Source: Thermoplasmata archaeon
GTDB lineage: Archaea > Thermoplasmatota > Thermoplasmata > Lutacidiplasmatales > UBA184
Length of the DNA stretch: 64,000 bases
Reading direction: 5' to 3'
Assembly: GCA_035502455.1 (NCBI GenBank)
Contig: DATJUI010000015.1
Coordinates: forward strand, 50,249-114,248
Shown here: in pieces, positions 29,383 to 45,365 of the stretch
How the letters are laid out: each line of letters starts with the position of its first letter
How positions within the stretch are numbered: the stretch's first letter is position 1
Program-made: the position numbers and the translations under genes
The notes under the pieces: model-generated
What the model was told of the DNA's origin: nothing
Database searches by the model: none
What the model saw: only the letters and a program-made list of their open reading frames with translations

Positions 29383-29457
29383 CGGGCGCGGAGGGATTTG
29401 AACCCTCGACCGCCGGGTTAGGAACCCGGTGCCCTATCCAAGCTAGGCTACGCGCCC
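29383..29457 (-). tRNA. tRNA-Arg (anticodon CCU), CCA not encoded
   Basis: Cloverleaf: acceptor GGGCGCG/CGCGCCC, D-arm GCCT-AGCTTGGATA-GGGC, anticodon stem CCGGG/CCCGG with loop TTCCTAA, variable CGGTC, T-arm GAGGG-TTCAAAT-CCCTC, discriminator G. T-rich stretch downstream. Confidence 0.85.
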
Positions 29458-34813: not shown

Positions 34814-35331
34814 CGCTCGAGCTCCTCGACCAGGTGGATCGCGGCGGGGACGATCAGCTTCTCGACCGCCGTGCGCACCGCGCGCTCGCTGCCCGGCAGC
34901 GCGAAGACCGGCTTTCCGTTGAGGACGAACAGCGAGGCTCGGCTGATGATCGCGAGCGGCCCCACCTCCTGGAAGCTCAGGGCCCGGTAGATCTCCCCGA
35001 ACCCCTCGAGCCGCTTGCCGCCCATCGTCTCGAGCGCCGTGACCGTGAGGTCGCGCGAGCTCACGCCGGTCCCGCCCACGGTGACGGCCGCCTCGACCCC
35101 GACGTCCTTCAGCCACGGGTCGAGGGCGTCGCGCACGTCGGCGACCGAGTTCGCGACCAGCCGGTAGTGCACGACCTGGTGGCCGCCGTGCTGGAGCAGC
35201 GCGCGCGCGAGGTGACCGGACGGATCGTCGTCCTCGGTGTGGGTGTCGGAGACCGACAGCACCCCGAAGCCGAGCGCCCGGGTGCCGCCGAGGTGGTGGC
35301 GCGACGTGGCCTGGGGCGGAGCGTCGGTCAT
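34810..35331 (-). CDS. moaB: Molybdenum cofactor biosynthesis protein B (MoaB/MogA family)
   Basis: GFGVLSVSDT...GGTGVSSRD (GGTG motif). Start is the internal ATG at 35329-35331 of ORF 34810..35439. Confidence 0.8.
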   Translation of the reverse strand: MTDAPPQATSRHHLGGTRALGFGVLSVSDTHTEDDDPSGHLARALLQHGGHQVVHYRLVANSVADVRDALDPWLKDVGVEAAVTVGGTGVSSRDLTVTALETMGGKRLEGFGEIYRALSFQEVGPLAIISRASLFVLNGKPVFALPGSERAVRTAVEKLIVPAAIHLVEELER

Positions 35332-35777
35332 GGGGTGCGGATCGCCTGCTTCTCCTTGCGCACCACGCGCACGGGCCCGAGGGCGGTGTGCGGGTAGAGC
35401 CCCCGCGCATCCTTCTCGAGGTACTTGACCATGTCCCATACGGTGAGCAGCGCGACGGTGGCGCCGACGAGCGCCTCCATCTCGACGCCGGTCGGGCCGA
35501 TCGACTCCGCCTCCACGCGGACGCGCACCCCGCGACGCGAGGGGCCGATCGTCACGGCGCTCGACGTGAGCGGGACGATGTGGCAGTGCGGGACCAGCTC
35601 CGCCGTGCGCTTCATCGCGAGCAGTCCGGCGACCTCGCCGGTCGCGATCGGGTCGCCCTTCGCCACCCGGCGCTGTGCGATCGCGCGGCGGGTGGCGGCC
35701 CCGAGGGCGAGCTCGCCGTCGACGACCGCCGTGCGGTGGACCGGGGGCTTCGCCCCGACGTCGCGCTGCCGGGCCAT
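35328..35777 (-). CDS. moaC: Cyclic pyranopterin monophosphate synthase accessory protein MoaC
   Basis: The C-terminal 149 aa of ORF 35328..37340 (KGDPIATGEVAGLLAMKRTAELVPHCHIVPL...) match MoaC; 4-nt overlap with moaB. Confidence 0.85.
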   Translation of the reverse strand: MARQRDVGAKPPVHRTAVVDGELALGAATRRAIAQRRVAKGDPIATGEVAGLLAMKRTAELVPHCHIVPLTSSAVTIGPSRRGVRVRVEAESIGPTGVEMEALVGATVALLTVWDMVKYLEKDARGLYPHTALGPVRVVRKEKQAIRTP

Positions 35778-35782
35778 CCGGG

Positions 35783-36769
35783 TCAGCTCCCGGCCGCCGG
35801 CGCGCCGGCGGCGAGATGGGCGAGCACCGCCTCGAGCTGGACCCGCTCCGAGGCGCCCTGCGCGAGCCGGAAGTCGACCTCGCCGAGGTACTCGACGAGG
35901 CGGATCTTGTCGCGCTCGGGGAGGAGCTCCGGGCTCAGGTCGGGGAGATACCCGTGGATGGCGTGCAGGATCTCCTCGCCGCTCGCCCCCCGGTCCGTGA
36001 GGAGCGCGTAGAGACGCTCGCGCGCCTCGCCGAAGCGGCCCGAGAGGGCGGCCCCGAGCATCGCCTCGACCTCGCGGCGCAGCGGGACCGTGGCGTACTC
36101 CTTCACCGTCTCGGGGGTGACGGTGTCCGAGTGGGTCGCGGTGAGCTGGAGCAGGTTCACCGCCCGTCGCATGTCGCCCGCCCCGGCCGTGACGAGCGTC
36201 GCGAGGGCGTCCGGCGTGATCCGCTTGCCCTCCGCCTTCGCGATCCGCTCGAGCTGCGTGCGGATCGCCTCGGGCGAGTAGCCGCGGAAGCGGAAGACCG
36301 CGCACCGCGACTGGATCGGGTCGATGATCCGGGACGAGTAGTTGCACGAGAGGATGAACCGGCACGAACCGGAATACCGCTCCATCAGGCGGCGGAGGGC
36401 GGCCTGCGCGTCCGAGGTGAGGTTGTCGGCCTCGTCCAAAAAGAGGATCTTGAACCCGACCTCCCCGATCGGGGCGGTCCGGGCGTACTCCTTGATCGTC
36501 GTCCGGACCGTGTCGATCCCGCGGGTGTCCGAGCTGTTGAGCTCGAGGAAGTTCTGCCGCCACTCGGCGCCGTAGAGGTCGTGCGCGAGCGCGAGCGCCG
36601 CGGTCGTCTTGCCGGCGCCGGGCGGTCCCGCGAACAGGAGATGGGGCATCGAGCGCTTCGCGGCGTACGCCCGGAGGAACGGGACGATCGACTCCTGGCC
36701 GACCATCTCCGCGAGCGACGTCGGCCGGTACTTCTCGACCCAGACGGCCTCGGTCGCGCGGTCCGGCAT
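35783..36769 (-). CDS. rfcS: Replication factor C small subunit (no intein)
   Basis: VEKYRP (RFC box II), Walker A GPPGAGKTT, DEAD-like FLDEADNL, SRC motif (IQSRCAVFRF); 328 aa from the ATG at 36767-36769. Confidence 0.9.
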   Translation of the reverse strand: MPDRATEAVWVEKYRPTSLAEMVGQESIVPFLRAYAAKRSMPHLLFAGPPGAGKTTAALALAHDLYGAEWRQNFLELNSSDTRGIDTVRTTIKEYARTAPIGEVGFKILFLDEADNLTSDAQAALRRLMERYSGSCRFILSCNYSSRIIDPIQSRCAVFRFRGYSPEAIRTQLERIAKAEGKRITPDALATLVTAGAGDMRRAVNLLQLTATHSDTVTPETVKEYATVPLRREVEAMLGAALSGRFGEARERLYALLTDRGASGEEILHAIHGYLPDLSPELLPERDKIRLVEYLGEVDFRLAQGASERVQLEAVLAHLAAGAPAAGS

Positions 36770-36807
36770 GAGCTCCGCGGCCGGTCTCCCGACCCGGGTA
36801 CTTAGGT

Positions 36808-37239
36808 TTAGCGCGGCGGGGGCGCCCCGCCCGCGGCGAACCGGCGCTCGTCCCGGCGGTGCCGACGGACCGCCTCCGCGAGGATCCGGCCGTACTGGCC
36901 GAGCGCCTGTCGATGCCCGCCGTGGTCCTCGGCGTCGACGACCGCGAAGAGCCCGCCGAGCTGATCGATCGAACCGAGGAACCAGGCGTGGTCCGAGCGC
37001 AGCCGCGCGGCGAGCTCCCGCTGCGCTCGCGGGGCCGACGGGCCGGGGTCCGGCACCTCCGTTTGCATGTGAGCGGCGAGGATCGACCGCGCGGCCCCCA
37101 CGGCGGCGCGAAGATCGTCGAGCGCGTACGCTTCCAGCAGGACCAGCCGAAGGCTCCAGGACTCGAGCCAGTCGACCGCCTCGTCGAACCCCGGGGGCGG
37201 GGGAGGGAGCGGCGGCGCCGCGTGCGCCGAGTCGTCCAC
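36808..37239 (-). CDS. Hypothetical protein, weakly hemerythrin/HHE-like
   Basis: 143-aa ORF filling the gap upstream of rfcS; the His/Glu/Asp spacing (H...E...DH...H) is suggestive only. Confidence 0.3.
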   Translation of the reverse strand: MDDSAHAAPPLPPPPPGFDEAVDWLESWSLRLVLLEAYALDDLRAAVGAARSILAAHMQTEVPDPGPSAPRAQRELAARLRSDHAWFLGSIDQLGGLFAVVDAEDHGGHRQALGQYGRILAEAVRRHRRDERRFAAGGAPPPR

Positions 37240-37541
37240 GCCCCCGGCCGGCGGCGCGAGGGGGTAACGGTTGCGCCGCCGTGCGCTCGCTCACCGGAAG
37301 TGAGCTTCGCGGGTGGTGTCTCGGGGTGCGTCCGGGGCATCCCCCACCAAGCGATCTCCCGATCGATGAACGCCCTCGTCCCCCGACCGCTGACCGAGCT
37401 GCCCGCGCTGACCCGAACGAACTTCGCCCGCTCGCCCGTCGAGAGCGGACGCCCGGCCCTTCTCCCGCGCGCCGGCGCGCGGGCGCCGCGCGCGGCGGAC
37501 CGGCGGACCCGCCGGCTCTGGAGCGAGTTCCTGGCACCGCT

Positions 37542-40698: not shown

Positions 40699-41562
40699 CT
40701 ACGTGAACTGCTCGCGGTCGAACAGCCAGAGGCCCCCGAGCGTCGTGCCGACGAAGTAGCCGAGCATCACGGAGATCCCCTGGAGGTACGTCGGGACGAG
40801 GATGATCGATCGGGCGGCGATGCCGGCGCCGACGGGAAGCCCGGTGATGGGGTACGAGAGGGTCGCGGACGCCCAGGTGATGACGAACCAGGGGGTGATC
40901 CCGACCAGACCCTCGACGAGGCCCTCGACCACCGAGAACCCGAACAGGAACATGATCGCGACGAGGATCACGCCGTACATGCTCGTCTTGAACAGCGAGC
41001 TGAACAGAAACGTCGTGCCCAGCACCGCGGCGAGGTACAGGGCCGTGATCGCCACGGACTCGAACACGCCCGCGGAGAGCGAGTTGCCCCCCACGAAGTA
41101 GAGGCCCGCCAGCACGACCACGACGAAGTAGGCGAGGATCGTCACCAGCGACGCGCCGAACGCCGCGAGGTACTTCCCGGCGTAGACGGTCCAGCGCTTG
41201 ATCGGGAGCCCCATGAGGAAGTAGCCGGTCCGGTTCTGGAACTCCCCCGCGATCGCGTCGCCGCCGAAGATGATCGCCGCGAAGATGATCAGGATCTCCG
41301 CGCCGCCGATCCAGAGGCTGCCGTAGAACGCCGCGCCCGTCCCGATCAGTCCGGCCGGCCGATAGTAGCCGACCAGCGAGAGCAGGATGACGCACACGGC
41401 GGCCACGATGCTCATCATCAGGATGAACCGGTTCGATCGGAGGTAATCGCGGAACTGGTACCGCGACAGGAGCAACGACTGCGCGACGCTGCCGGGCACC
41501 CGACTTCCGTCCGGCACCGCGCCCGCCGCGGCCGACGGCGCGCTCGCCACGGCGGCGCTCAC
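40699..41562 (-). CDS. ABC-2 type transporter permease
   Basis: Hydrophobic 287-aa protein; GTG start whose codon overlaps the TGA of the upstream ATPase gene. Confidence 0.7.
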   Translation of the reverse strand: MSAAVASAPSAAAGAVPDGSRVPGSVAQSLLLSRYQFRDYLRSNRFILMMSIVAAVCVILLSLVGYYRPAGLIGTGAAFYGSLWIGGAEILIIFAAIIFGGDAIAGEFQNRTGYFLMGLPIKRWTVYAGKYLAAFGASLVTILAYFVVVVLAGLYFVGGNSLSAGVFESVAITALYLAAVLGTTFLFSSLFKTSMYGVILVAIMFLFGFSVVEGLVEGLVGITPWFVITWASATLSYPITGLPVGAGIAARSIILVPTYLQGISVMLGYFVGTTLGGLWLFDREQFT

Positions 41563-42503
41563 GCGTCCCCCTGGGAGATCTCGCGCAGATAGACCTCCTC
41601 GAGCGCGCTCCGCGATTCGCGGAAGCTCAACAGGCCCAAGTGCCGGGACGCGACGCTCTCGAGCAGTTGCACCTGCTCGGTCGGGCCCCCCTTGACAGCG
41701 AGCTGGAGGCGGTTCGGGCCGAGCCGGGTGCAGCCCGACACCCCGGGGAGCGTCGCGATGGGGCCGACCGCGGCGTCGTCGAGCGGGGCGGCGAACTCCA
41801 CCTCGACCGTCCGCGTCCCGCTGCCGAGCCGGCGCTCGACGTTCTCCAACCGATCGTAGAACAGGAGCTTCCCGCGGTCGAGCAGGGCGACCTCGTCGCA
41901 GACGTCGGTGACCTCGCTCAAGATGTGGCTGCTCATGAAGATCAGCCGGTCCTCCTTCTTGAGCGCCCGCACGATCGACCGCACCTCGGCCATCCCGCGC
42001 GGATCGAGGCCCGTGCTCGGCTCGTCCAGGATCACGACCTCGGGGTCCGAGAGGAGCGCCGCGGCGATGTTCACCCGCTGCTTCATCCCCTTCGAGAACC
42101 GCCCGACCTTCTGGTCCGCCCACTCGGTCATCTTGACCTCTTCGAGGACGGTCTTCGTGCGGTCCCGGATCTCGGCCGCGCTGAGCCCGCGGAGCGCCCC
42201 GCTCATCTCGAGCGCCTCGCGGGGCGAGAGGGACGGGTAGATCTCGGGAGTCTCGATGAGGTCCCCGCAGCTCGAGAGCGCGCGCTTGCGGTCGCCCTGG
42301 ACCGAGATCCCGTTGACGAACGCCTCGCCCTCCGTCGGGAAGATCAGGTCGGTGAACATCTTGAGGGTCGTCGTCTTGCCCGCGCCGTTCGGACCGAGGA
42401 AGCCGATGCACTTCGACCCCTCGATCTTGAGATTGAGATGGTCGACCGCGACGAAGCTGTTGAACCGCTTCGTGAGCTGGACCGCTTCGAGACTCGGCGC
42501 CAT
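41559..42503 (-). CDS. ABC transporter ATP-binding protein
   Basis: Walker A GPNGAGKTT, signature FSKGMKQR, Walker B ILDEPSTGLD. Start is the ATG at 42501-42503 inside ORF 41559..42605. Confidence 0.9.
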   Translation of the reverse strand: MAPSLEAVQLTKRFNSFVAVDHLNLKIEGSKCIGFLGPNGAGKTTTLKMFTDLIFPTEGEAFVNGISVQGDRKRALSSCGDLIETPEIYPSLSPREALEMSGALRGLSAAEIRDRTKTVLEEVKMTEWADQKVGRFSKGMKQRVNIAAALLSDPEVVILDEPSTGLDPRGMAEVRSIVRALKKEDRLIFMSSHILSEVTDVCDEVALLDRGKLLFYDRLENVERRLGSGTRTVEVEFAAPLDDAAVGPIATLPGVSGCTRLGPNRLQLAVKGGPTEQVQLLESVASRHLGLLSFRESRSALEEVYLREISQGDA

Positions 42504-42531
42504 ACTGACGTTGCGGGGTCTCGCAAGCCGG

Positions 42532-42539
42532 GTTAAAAG
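42532..42539 (-). promoter_or_regulatory. TATA box (GCTTTTAAC on the minus strand) upstream of the ABC ATPase gene
   Basis: 29-36 nt upstream of the ATG. Confidence 0.35.
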
Positions 42540-42641
42540 CGGAGCGGCCGAGTGCGTCGCCGGCGCACGACCCCGGCGTCTCCCGGCCCGGCCCCGTCCC
42601 GGCACCGAAACCTACTCACGCCGCCGGGAGTTCGCGGTCGC

Positions 42642-42977: not shown

Positions 42978-43310
42978 TCAGCGGCGCCGGACCGGTCCCG
43001 CGGACGGAGGGCGCTCGAGCAGCTCGACGTAGCCGCGCATCTTCCAGTAGGTGTCGAGGAACTCCTGCCCGCGCGGTGTGATGTCGTACGCGGGGCGCCC
43101 GTCCACCTCCTCGGCGCGCAGGAGACCGAGCGCCATCAGCCGCTCCACGAAGGTGCGCAGCCGGTCGACCGGCATCCCCGCGCCGTACGAGACGCGCGTG
43201 ATCCGCGCGGCCCCGTGGTAGCGCTTCACGACCTCGAGGACGGTGGCGTAGAGGTCCGTGGCCTCGCGACGACGCGCCGTGCGGGCGCCGTCGTTCGGCC
43301 CGACCGCCAT
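42978..43310 (-). CDS. Winged-helix DNA-binding protein
   Basis: LYATVLEVVKRYHGAARITRVSYGAGMPVDRLRTFVERLMALGLLRAEEVDGRPAYDITPRGQEFL looks like a wHTH with a beta-hairpin wing. Confidence 0.5.
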   Translation of the reverse strand: MAVGPNDGARTARRREATDLYATVLEVVKRYHGAARITRVSYGAGMPVDRLRTFVERLMALGLLRAEEVDGRPAYDITPRGQEFLDTYWKMRGYVELLERPPSAGPVRRR

Positions 43311-43319
43311 CGTCGCCCC

Positions 43320-44537
43320 TCAGAGCGGAAACGCGGGCAGGCTATCGGCCTTCAGGGGACCCGAGGTGACCGTCGCGCCCTGGCCGACGTCCACCTCCCC
43401 CGTGTACGTGACCTCCCCGACCCGGGCCCGGTCGCGCAGGCGGACGACCCGCGCGAAGATCCGCCGGGCCTCCGCCCGCTCGTGCAGCTCCACCTCGTCG
43501 GCGTAGATGTCCTCGGCCTCGGCGCGGCTGCGCAGGACGACGCTCCGTCCGACGAGCGGGCCGTGCGCCCGCGAGCGGCTGTTGAGCTCGATCCGGTCGG
43601 CCTTGAGCCCGTCGCGGGTGCTGACGGCCCCTCCGATCTCGGCCTCGCCGGCGAAGACCGCCCGCTCCGCCTCGAGCGAGCCGCCGACCGTCGCCGTGCG
43701 GCCGGAGAGCGGGCCGCGCACCTCGATCGATCCGCCGACCTCGAGGTGGTCGGTGAGCTCGAGCGGACCCTGGACCTCGAACCGTCCCCCGATCTCGACC
43801 GACCCTCCCTGGCCCCGCCCTCCGATCGAGCCGATGCCGCCGATCGAGAGCTTTTGGAACGTGAGGTCGGAGCGGGCGGTGAGCATCCCGCCGACGTCGA
43901 TCGACCCGCCCGTCGCGGGGCCCCGGAACTCGACGAAGCCGCCCACATCGAGCGCGCCGAACGTCAGCGCGGACTCCGCGAGGAATTTGCCACCGGCCTC
44001 GATCGAGCGACGGACCGCACCGCCGCCGATCCGGGCGAGGCCCCCGACCTCCAGCGAGTCGAGATCGACCTCCCCGAGCTCGATCGTCCCCCCGGCCTCG
44101 ATCGAGCCGGCGGTGACCTTGCCGGCCGCCGCGAACCGCCCGCCGACCGAGACCGTCTTCGCGTCGAGCGTGGAGCGCGCCTCGAACTGGCCGCCCACCT
44201 CGAACTCCTCGGCGGTGGCCGCACCTCCGATGATCAGCTTGCGGTCGACGTCGACGCGGCCCCCCGAGAGCGCACCGGTCGTCTCGATCCCCCCGTCGTG
44301 GTACTCGAGCCGTCCCGCGACCTTGAGCCCGCCCTCGATGCGGAGCGTGCCATCTTCGCCCTCCAGGCGGGCGCACTCGAGGTCGCCGTGGACTTCGCAG
44401 CTGCCGCGGAAGCGCGCCTCGCCGGCCACCACGATCTTCCCGTCGGCGTCGAGGCGGGCGTTCGGCTCCACGCGGAGGTCCCCCTCGACCGCGCCGAGGC
44501 GGACGTGCGCCCCGCGGGGCACGTGGGTCTCGCTCAT
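43320..44537 (-). CDS. Bactofilin-like polymer-forming beta-helical repeat protein
   Basis: About 15 tandem repeats of ~17-19 aa with the h-x-h-G-G periodicity (KVAGRLE, IIGGAAT, VGGQFEA, VGGRFAA, IEAGGTIE, EVGGLARIGGG, VGGFVEF, VGGMLTA, IGGIGSIGG, EIGGRFEV, VGGSIEV, VGGSLEA, IGGAVST) typical of the bactofilin/CcmA fold. Confidence 0.6.
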   Translation of the reverse strand: MSETHVPRGAHVRLGAVEGDLRVEPNARLDADGKIVVAGEARFRGSCEVHGDLECARLEGEDGTLRIEGGLKVAGRLEYHDGGIETTGALSGGRVDVDRKLIIGGAATAEEFEVGGQFEARSTLDAKTVSVGGRFAAAGKVTAGSIEAGGTIELGEVDLDSLEVGGLARIGGGAVRRSIEAGGKFLAESALTFGALDVGGFVEFRGPATGGSIDVGGMLTARSDLTFQKLSIGGIGSIGGRGQGGSVEIGGRFEVQGPLELTDHLEVGGSIEVRGPLSGRTATVGGSLEAERAVFAGEAEIGGAVSTRDGLKADRIELNSRSRAHGPLVGRSVVLRSRAEAEDIYADEVELHERAEARRIFARVVRLRDRARVGEVTYTGEVDVGQGATVTSGPLKADSLPAFPL

Positions 44538-44560
44538 CGGAACTCCTCAGGGGGACCCCC

Positions 44561-44569
44561 TTCTATAGG
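44561..44569 (-). promoter_or_regulatory. TATA box for the bactofilin-like gene
   Basis: CCTATAGAA (minus sense) 24-32 nt upstream of the ATG at 44537. Confidence 0.4.
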
Positions 44570-44624
44570 AGTGAGTCACGTGGAGTGAGCACCGGCGGCG
44601 CGGAGGCGGCGGGGGGCCCGATCC

Positions 44625-44632
44625 TCTATAGT
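44625..44632 (+). promoter_or_regulatory. TATA box for udg
   Basis: CTCTATAG 20-27 nt upstream of the GTG at 44652. Confidence 0.4.
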
Positions 44633-44651: not shown

Positions 44652-45365
44652 GTGGGCGATTCGCTCGAGGGGCTCCGCCGGGAGATCGTCGAGTGCCGCC
44701 GATGCCCCCGGCTCGTCGCCTACCGCGAGCGGGTGGCGCGCGACCGCAAGAAGGAGTTCCGCGCGCAGAGCTACTGGGGCCGGCCCGTGCCGGGATTCGG
44801 GGACCCCCGCGCCCGGCTGGTGGCGGTCGGGCTCGCCCCGGCCGCGCACGGCTCGAACCGGACCGGCCGGGTGTTCACGGGGGACCGGTCGGCCGCCTTC
44901 CTCGTCCGGGCGTTCTACGAGGCCGGCCTCGCGAACCAGCCCACCTCGACCCATCGGGGAGACGGCCTCCGGTACCGCGATCTGTACCTGACCGCGGCCG
45001 TCCGCTGCGCGCCTCCGGACAACCGGCCTACCCCCGAGGAGCGGGTCCGGTGCGCCCCCTACCTCGAGCGGGAGCTGCGCCAGCTCCCCGAGGTACGGGC
45101 GATCCTCGCCCTCGGCGGGTTCGCCTGGGACGCGGTCCGCGACCTCGTCCCCCCGGTCTACGGCGTCGCCCGTCCGAACGTGGCGTTCGCGCACGGCGCC
45201 TGCGCCCCGCTCGGTCCGGGGAAGCCGATGCTGTGGGCGTCGTACCATCCGAGCCCGCAGAACACGCAGACCGGCAAGCTGACCCCGGCGATGCTGACGG
45301 GCCTCCTGCGCACGATCCAGGGATCGTACGGGGCCGCCCCGGTGGGTCCGGGGCGGCACGCTTAA
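44652..45365 (+). CDS. udg: Uracil-DNA glycosylase, family 5 (UdgB-like)
   Basis: CRRCPRL (motif A region), GLAPAAHGSNRTGRVFTGD (family 5 GLAPA motif) and the late HPSPQN motif. Confidence 0.8.
   Translation: MGDSLEGLRREIVECRRCPRLVAYRERVARDRKKEFRAQSYWGRPVPGFGDPRARLVAVGLAPAAHGSNRTGRVFTGDRSAAFLVRAFYEAGLANQPTSTHRGDGLRYRDLYLTAAVRCAPPDNRPTPEERVRCAPYLERELRQLPEVRAILALGGFAWDAVRDLVPPVYGVARPNVAFAHGACAPLGPGKPMLWASYHPSPQNTQTGKLTPAMLTGLLRTIQGSYGAAPVGPGRHA

Follow-up and report, generated by a model that had tools for sequence, protein, structure and literature searches.

A long beta-helical protein of the bactofilin superfamily and a winged-helix protein are encoded by a conserved archaeal gene pair with a candidate operator at its promoter

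What role might a long repeat protein play when it is encoded next to a small putative DNA-binding protein in an uncultured soil archaeon? The question is raised by a stretch of 64,000 nucleotides (hereinafter, the window) from a Thermoplasmata archaeon (GenBank assembly GCA_035502455.1, contig DATJUI010000015.1, positions 50,249 to 114,248), in which two open reading frames (ORFs) follow each other on the reverse strand, namely the rod gene (43320..44537), encoding a protein of 405 aa, and the winged-helix gene (42978..43310), encoding a protein of 110 aa. A previous examination of this DNA without database searches (hereinafter, the sequence-only reading) placed it, correctly, in an archaeon and described the products as a bactofilin-like protein and a co-oriented winged-helix protein, with an ice-binding or antifreeze beta-solenoid as another option. 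The answer that we favor, with about even confidence, is that the two genes make up an operon that controls its own expression and encodes a beta-helical rod or scaffold of the cytoplasm together with its cognate regulator, and that this operon is conserved in several archaeal phyla.

The 405-aa protein consists almost entirely of beta-helical repeats. Autocorrelation of glycines, hydrophobic residues and residue identity along the sequence shows main peaks at lags of 17, 34 and 51 and minor ones at 6 and 11, which indicates windings of 17 residues with three short faces each. Thus, the repeats with GG turns noted in the sequence-only reading are upheld, with a period of 17 rather than approximately 18 residues. 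The structure prediction that had been proposed there as a check points the same way: the AlphaFold2 model, built from a 57-sequence alignment, is all-beta (pLDDT 97.1, pTM 0.87), contains no helix of four or more residues and keeps a pLDDT of at least 86 from end to end, so that neither terminus is a low-confidence tail. The N-terminal MSETHVPRG leads directly into the first strand, and a separate model of residues 249-405 concurs (pLDDT 97.0). The predicted fold class is therefore clear. Residues 3 to 396 form approximately 23 windings of 17 aa, which, with the 4.8 A rise per winding usual for beta-helices, would add up to a rod of about 11 nm.

Several lines of evidence from profile comparisons classify this protein as a divergent member of the bactofilin superfamily. 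The Pfam Bactofilin model (PF04519) passes its gathering score marginally for the rod itself (28.6 against 27.9 bits, residues 249-338) and matches 55 of its 57 relatives at E<=0.01, the best with an E-value of 6e-19. Conversely, a profile of the rod family matches the Thermus bactofilin TtBac (6ria) with an E-value of 6e-4 and the Caulobacter bactofilin BacA with an E-value of 0.011, and hhalign places a TtBac fragment at both the N-terminal and the C-terminal thirds of the rod, with modest probability (59% and 49%). A phmmer search of the PDB sequences seeded with the single rod sequence gave no match, and the Hexapep and other left-handed beta-helix (LbH) models, the FapA model and the ice-binding adhesin models all scored below threshold against the rod. 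The homology claimed in the sequence-only reading thus stands, while the canonical bactofilin layout does not, as detailed below. The family assignment as such is not new because annotation pipelines already name members "polymer-forming cytoskeletal protein" or "CcmA (bactofilin family)". The novelty lies in the architecture of the rod and in its conserved partner and candidate operator. Full-text searches of the literature yielded no description of the rod family or of an archaeal pair of a bactofilin and a winged-helix protein.

The rod is not a chance feature, given that 223 family representatives reach E<1e-30 in a set of 1.84 billion proteins; approximately 70 of the 150 family members listed are full-length, and the organism names attached to the matches are all archaeal. 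Among 74 species-level orthologs, 60 are exactly 405 aa long and 73 fall between 404 and 407 aa; 60 of the 74 align to the window rod without a gap, even though the mean identity among the orthologs is just 52%. Such a strict repeat number at this level of divergence suggests that the rod is length-constrained, with its length held constant while the surface sequence drifts. In a central block of about 12 windings (approximately residues 100-305), the motif hydrophobic-[D/E]-hydrophobic-G-G recurs, and family-wide, the outward-facing position of this motif is occupied by D or E in 65% of 655 windings, compared with a background of 15%, so that acidic residues line one edge of the predicted rod as a ladder beside the GG turns. 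The chain ends in a hydrophobic tail, LP[PA]FPL in 66 of the 74 Thermoplasmata orthologs (LPAFPL in the window) and modeled with a pLDDT of about 86-89, of which L400, P401 and P404 are invariant in the cross-phylum alignment; Cys55 is also conserved. No signal peptide or hydrophobic segment was found in the 405-aa sequence, and profile scans detected no ligand-binding or enzymatic domain.

The protein is mildly acidic (pI 5.1, net charge -15). A role as a DNA mimic of the kind of the acidic beta-helices MfpA and Qnr was considered and set aside: the net charge is only -15, and several relatives have a pI above 8. Separately, the same windings occur in giant proteins of 1500-6400 aa (P0126, P0132, P0138, P0152 and P0188), two of the three tested matching PF04519, so that bactofilin-type windings also build very large proteins that presumably reside at the cell surface.

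The product of the second gene is a winged-helix protein, as the sequence-only reading had it: residues 14-92 match the HTH_45 model (PF14947) with 33.9 bits against a cut-off of 25.5. The nearest solved structures to its profile are Sso10a-2 (4hw0, E-value 3e-8) and Sso10a (1r7j, E-value 1e-4), and with 33 bits against a cut-off of 60 for the NCBIfam Sso10a subfamily NF053610, the protein is a relative rather than a member of that subfamily. It is basic (pI 10.2) and also produces weak, non-significant profile matches to the archaeal partition protein AspA (E-value 0.025). Its mean identity across 75 species is approximately 79%, compared with approximately 52% for the rod in the same genomes, a difference that would be expected if the protein were bound to recognize a conserved DNA site.

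The two genes are separated by the TGA stop codon of the rod gene and a spacer of 9 nt (43311..43322 for both together and 43311..43319 for the spacer, reverse strand, read from the sequence), not 10 nt as given previously, and a Shine-Dalgarno-like GAGGGG (43321..43316, reverse strand) precedes the winged-helix ATG and overlaps the rod stop codon. The tight junction is consistent with an operon, and the spacer is 0-26 nt in 73 of 74 orthologous loci (78 nt in the remaining one). In the window, both genes lie in one reading frame with the TGA and three codons between them (43308..43325), such that readthrough would yield a fusion protein; programmed readthrough was rejected because the in-frame layout is not conserved, the spacers in related loci ranging from 0 to 26 nt.

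Conservation of the pair, which the sequence-only reading had missed, extends across phyla. We searched one genome per species of the Genome Taxonomy Database (GTDB) with a four-sequence winged-helix alignment and examined the best 80 of the 167 relatives found. All 80 come from soil or peat Thermoplasmata metagenome-assembled genomes (MAGs), and in 79 of them the winged-helix gene is immediately preceded by a co-oriented rod gene, the remaining locus being truncated by a contig end. Among the more diverse loci collected around the rod gene, the winged-helix gene is directly downstream in the window, in a second Thermoplasmata genome (L001), in L007, L088, L089 and L090, and on the contig of the rod homolog P0068, the closest named relatives of which are Heimdallarchaeota (profile searches yield Heimdallarchaeota members of approximately 400 aa at E-values near that of P0068). 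In Nitrososphaera evergladensis, the winged-helix gene is the next gene after the rod gene NTE_00973, and the same order is found in two Nitrososphaerales MAGs (L005 and L006); in L091, the winged-helix gene is just upstream of the rod gene. The flanking genes vary among the Thermoplasmata and non-Thermoplasmata lineages that carry the pair. Within Thermoplasmata, more than 70 species have a single copy of the rod gene, in a syntenic position between housekeeping genes (TGT, uracil-DNA glycosylase [UDG] and rhodanese). Family profiles detected no second copy of either gene in the 64-kb window, and the MAG SMAG_U15087 carries two copies of the pair on separate contigs (L021 and L044; DATJWA010000005.1 and DATJWA010000025.1), which could reflect either true duplication or a mixed bin.

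With respect to the neighbors, the family-4 UDG gene is the divergent upstream neighbor of the pair throughout the Thermoplasmata clade. A UDG gene is also present next to the pair in the Nitrososphaerales MAGs (L005 and L006, 6630..7325), there as the co-directional downstream neighbor and with a product 59% identical to the window UDG, so that the adjacency occurs in two phyla. ABC-2 transporter genes likewise adjoin the pair in L005, L006 and L090.

The second feature overlooked in the sequence-only reading is a palindromic candidate operator beside the TATA box. In an alignment of the 90 nt before the start codon of the rod gene from 75 loci, assembled without motif-based selection, only two blocks are conserved in otherwise drifting sequence, a palindrome and a TATA motif (ccggTgcTCACcg..cGTGACcTA.cccTATAGa). 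The palindrome, TCAC-N5-GTGA, occurs in 76 of 82 loci, the spacer being 5 nt in every case, and in most relatives it extends to GTCAC-N5-GTGAC. In 68 of these 76 loci, the palindrome ends 36-37 nt before the start codon, and in 71 of them, the TATA motif begins 8 nt further on from the palindrome. In the window, the candidate operator occupies positions 44575..44589 (exact match at 44576..44588; the palindrome reads alike on both strands), 8 nt upstream of the TATA motif and next to the position of the transcription factor B recognition element (BRE), and the TATA box CTATAGAA follows at 44568..44561 on the reverse strand. The upstream TATA box of the sequence-only reading is thereby borne out by its constant position. 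From the first T of the box (44567) down to the ATG (44537), the distance is 30 nt. Archaeal TATA boxes usually lie at about -30 to -23, and by this usual distance, the transcript would start at the ATG or 1 nt before it, which is consistent with a leaderless or near-leaderless mRNA. The UDG gene has its own TATA motif at 44627..44630, about 60 bp from the rod TATA box.

Distant loci without an adjacent UDG gene have the element too: L007 has GCTCAC-N5-GTGAGC, and L089 has TCAC-N5-GTGA with a TATA box 7 nt on. Therefore, the element travels with the pair and not with the divergent UDG gene. Palindromes with one mismatch or GTGAG half-sites are found 5-8 nt from a TATA motif in N. evergladensis, L088, L090, L091 and the locus of a Promethearchaeota MAG.

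The window contains two exact copies of the palindrome, compared with 0.43 expected. The other copy (37291..37303, CTCACCGGAAGTGAG) has perfect 5-bp arms and no adjoining TATA box; it lies within a 670-aa ORF (35328..37340, reverse strand) in which MoaC accounts only for the last 140 residues, most of the ORF being an over-extension. Apart from this one copy, no sign of an operator regulon was found in the window, where a relaxed version of the pattern shows no enrichment. Five Thermoplasmata genomes carry another copy of the palindrome (6127..6139 in L012; approximately 6107..6158 in L044, L062, L068 and L078) just upstream of an ABC-2 operon that encodes an ATPase and a permease and that is inserted between the winged-helix gene and the rhodanese gene. 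This operon is a possible second target of the winged-helix regulator.

How might these parts work together? In the autoregulated operon that we favor, the rod would be a cytoplasmic single-chain beta-helix that acts as a scaffold or filament element, its capacity to polymerize being suggested by its homology to polymer-forming proteins. The winged-helix protein would most likely bind as a dimer to the TCAC-N5-GTGA palindrome: the half-sites are one helical turn apart, as would suit a winged-helix protein that acts as a dimer, and the HTH_45 protein, co-encoded and highly conserved, readily suggests itself as the candidate. Because the palindrome abuts the BRE and TATA box of the operon's own promoter, the protein would control both genes. 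By analogy with the Bacillus proteins BacR and BacE/F, direct contact between the rod and the winged-helix protein is also probable, and such contact would couple the amount or the assembly state of the rod to transcription.

A number of observations weigh against this picture. In the Promethearchaeota MAG, the winged-helix gene is 5 kb away from the rod gene. In the two Nitrososphaerales MAGs, another palindrome takes the place of TCAC-N5-GTGA, even though the recognition helix is similar. Foldseek searches of the PDB with the full model and with the model of the C-terminal 157 aa produced no significant match and did not retrieve 6ria or 2n3d, and so are uninformative on the family; the best match, itself non-significant, is to the right-handed beta-helix of tapirin (TMq 0.52), a weak hint on handedness. 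The rod and winged-helix proteins are found fused in one case only (P0031), a lone entry of the error-prone, read-level SRC catalog. Finally, the ordered ends of the rod model, together with the LPxFPL tail, may form a capped end that would work against end-to-end polymerization. As for P0031, its use as a Rosetta-stone fusion was downgraded because there are frameshifts in its cluster-mates and because P0031 could not be located on any contig; none of the six other long or extended rod relatives contains a helix-turn-helix domain.

The possibility of a capped rod leads to the first alternative, which we consider rather unlikely, namely that the rod is a capped monomer or dimer of fixed length with a mainly regulatory role, as a co-repressor, an anti-repressor or a sensor partner, and that the pair controls other genes as well. 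Both termini are confidently ordered, the hydrophobic C-terminal tail is conserved, neither disordered tails nor a membrane-targeting peptide is present, and the strict length of 405 aa would suit a particle of set size better than an open-ended polymer; the second palindrome before the ABC-2 operon in five loci hints at further targets. However, a 405-aa beta-helix would be a costly partner for a regulator, the profile scans offer no ligand-binding or enzymatic domain, the proteins to which it is homologous are polymer-forming, and the five loci with the second site are likely close relatives of each other.

A bolder proposition, which we hold to be unlikely, is that the pair represents an unrecognized archaeal cytoskeleton-to-DNA module, distributed over Thermoplasmatota, Nitrososphaerota and Asgard archaea. 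Here, an 11-nm rod of fixed length, possibly assembling further, would dock an Sso10a-like dimer, perhaps via the acidic ladder or the LPxFPL tail, and would serve as a mechanical or assembly-state sensor, its state being read out at the DNA in the form of transcription or of nucleoid anchoring.

Still in the vein of anchoring, the pair could be a device for organizing the nucleoid or positioning DNA, in which an Sso10a-like chromatin or centromere adaptor tethers DNA to the rod scaffold; this strikes us as quite unlikely. The bactofilins BacNOP, with PadC, play such a tethering role for the ParABS system in Myxococcus. The closest solved relatives of the winged-helix protein, Sso10a and Sso10a-2, are architectural DNA-binding proteins (PMC4941522), the AspA profile matches point in the same direction, and a DNA-repair gene, that for UDG, neighbors the pair in two phyla. 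Against this stand the lack of significance of the AspA matches, the location of the sole clearly conserved site at the pair's own promoter, in the classic position of an operator and with no array of sites, and the fact that no ParA or SegA-type ATPase gene is conserved near the pair in the loci examined.

It is very improbable that the rod works outside the cell as an ice-binding, antifreeze or adhesin beta-solenoid, the first two of which were raised as an option in the sequence-only reading, or else is a phage fibre-like protein. The match to pAdhesive_15 (PF20597) is sub-threshold (19.3 against 23.8 bits), and the match of the rod-family profile to the putative tail-fibre protein 9cuy (E-value 5e-12) runs via the repeats; the giant proteins described above show that the same windings do occur in a presumably extracellular setting. 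The rod, for its part, lacks a signal peptide as well as any hydrophobic segment, its gene is single-copy and syntenic among housekeeping genes, and its partner is a DNA-binding regulator in what appears to be a cytoplasmic regulatory operon; no phage or defense genes were found near the pair, and the PADLOC search for defense systems yielded no match for the rod and one sub-significant match for the winged-helix protein. An acyltransferase-type enzyme with a left-handed (hexapeptide-repeat) beta-helix, the outcome that the sequence-only reading had named as counting against a bactofilin, is close to negligible because, for all that JGI labels two relatives "predicted acyltransferase (DUF342 family)" and LbH_EIF2B matches weakly in 5 of 57 relatives, the rod has a period of 17 and not 18, no Hexapep match and no catalytic or nucleotide-binding domain attached, and GlmU, LpxA and LpxD fit the model poorly (TM-score <=0.2, rmsd approximately 12 A).

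In the window, the family-4 UDG gene lies at 44652..45365 on the forward strand, divergent from the rod gene, and ABC-2 transporter genes occupy 40699..42605. Two metagenomic contigs (L092 and L093) that are nearly identical to the window reveal the local order: arcTGT and family-4 UDG (divergent), the 405-aa gene, the 110-aa gene, a convergent rhodanese gene, genes for an ABC ATPase and an ABC-2 permease, and TYW1. Between these contigs and the window, every codon difference in the 405-aa gene is synonymous (3 and 2 codons), as are 5 of the 7 codon differences in the 110-aa gene. The G+C content of the window is 68-77% in 2-kb windows, and an opposite-strand ORF (43215..44588, forward strand) as well as other-frame ORFs, 344-457 aa long, overlie the rod gene; these were rejected as real genes, being ordinary artifacts of 72-75% G+C with no match to the rod or winged-helix profiles. 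The sole Rfam match in the window at the gathering threshold is a tRNA gene (29383..29457, reverse strand), and a scan for bacterial-type promoters and terminators gave nothing, as expected for an archaeon.

The functional study of archaeal bactofilins dates only from 2024, when the haloarchaeal halofilins were described, and the rod family extends the superfamily to soil Thermoplasmata, ammonia-oxidizing Nitrososphaerales, Heimdallarchaeota and Promethearchaeota, with the distinct architecture of a single chain of approximately 23 windings and fixed length. The family also lends itself to experiment, since it brings along its own winged-helix partner and a candidate operator of 15 bp. Should the rod indeed bind the regulator, this would be the second, independent case, after BacR, of a bactofilin that gates a DNA-binding protein and would suggest a general design principle. 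Should the rod gene be merely an autoregulated structural gene, the locus would still supply a clear-cut new family, along with an archaeal promoter and operator that are well defined. Demonstration of rod-regulator coupling or of filaments would raise the interest further, given the presence of the family in Asgard archaea.

It remains to place the pair among the known systems. With the canonical bactofilins (PF04519/DUF583; TtBac, 6RIA, and BacA, 2N3D), the rod shares homology, three-faced windings of about 17 residues, turn glycines, inward-pointing hydrophobic residues and a predicted cytoplasmic location. Canonical bactofilins, however, have a core of about six windings, compared with approximately 23 in the single chain of the rod, as well as disordered tails and often an N-terminal membrane-targeting sequence, both of which the rod lacks, whereas the acidic ladder of [D/E]-x-G-G windings and the LPxFPL tail are peculiar to the rod, for which polymerization is only a prediction from this relationship. 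The statement in the sequence-only reading that bactofilins are sparsely reported in archaea is dated: the halofilins HalA and HalB of Haloferax volcanii were characterized in 2024 and are reported to polymerize and to shape cells (PMC11459167).

Like the rod, the halofilins and the BacE/F-like group are archaeal or mixed members of the bactofilin superfamily with non-canonical architectures. HalA consists of two six-winding subdomains joined head-to-head with an alpha-helical hairpin between them, HalB has a signal peptide, five transmembrane helices and an extracellular bactofilin domain, and the BacE/F-like group has 13 windings (PMC11459167). In contrast, the rod has no predicted helix, no signal peptide, no transmembrane helix and approximately 23 windings, and thus its architecture fits none of the groups of the halofilin study (PMC11459167), which makes no mention of Thermoplasmata, of Thaumarchaeota or Nitrososphaera, or of a winged-helix partner.

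The closest parallel to the proposed logic, and the basis of our working model, is BacR (YhbD) of Bacillus subtilis, a small DNA-binding protein that is co-operonic with the long bactofilins BacE/F and regulates the operon, with BacE/F binding BacR and keeping it off the DNA (PMC13649987). The archaeal winged-helix protein is likewise encoded together with a long bactofilin, and the palindrome at the pair's own promoter would fit autoregulation. Because BacR belongs to DUF4004 and to a bacterial, membrane-associated system, whereas the archaeal partner is an HTH_45 protein, the likeness is one of logic and not of homology. At the level of the regulator, the closest counterparts are Sso10a and Sso10a-2 of Sulfolobus (1R7J and 4HW0), which are, like the winged-helix protein, small and basic HTH_45 proteins with a winged helix-turn-helix and which form dimers, as is predicted here. 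The archaeal partner differs from them in the shorter segment after the wing (approximately 18 residues, likely a helix), such that the long coiled-coil of Sso10a may be absent, and in having a specific, conserved candidate palindrome at its own promoter.

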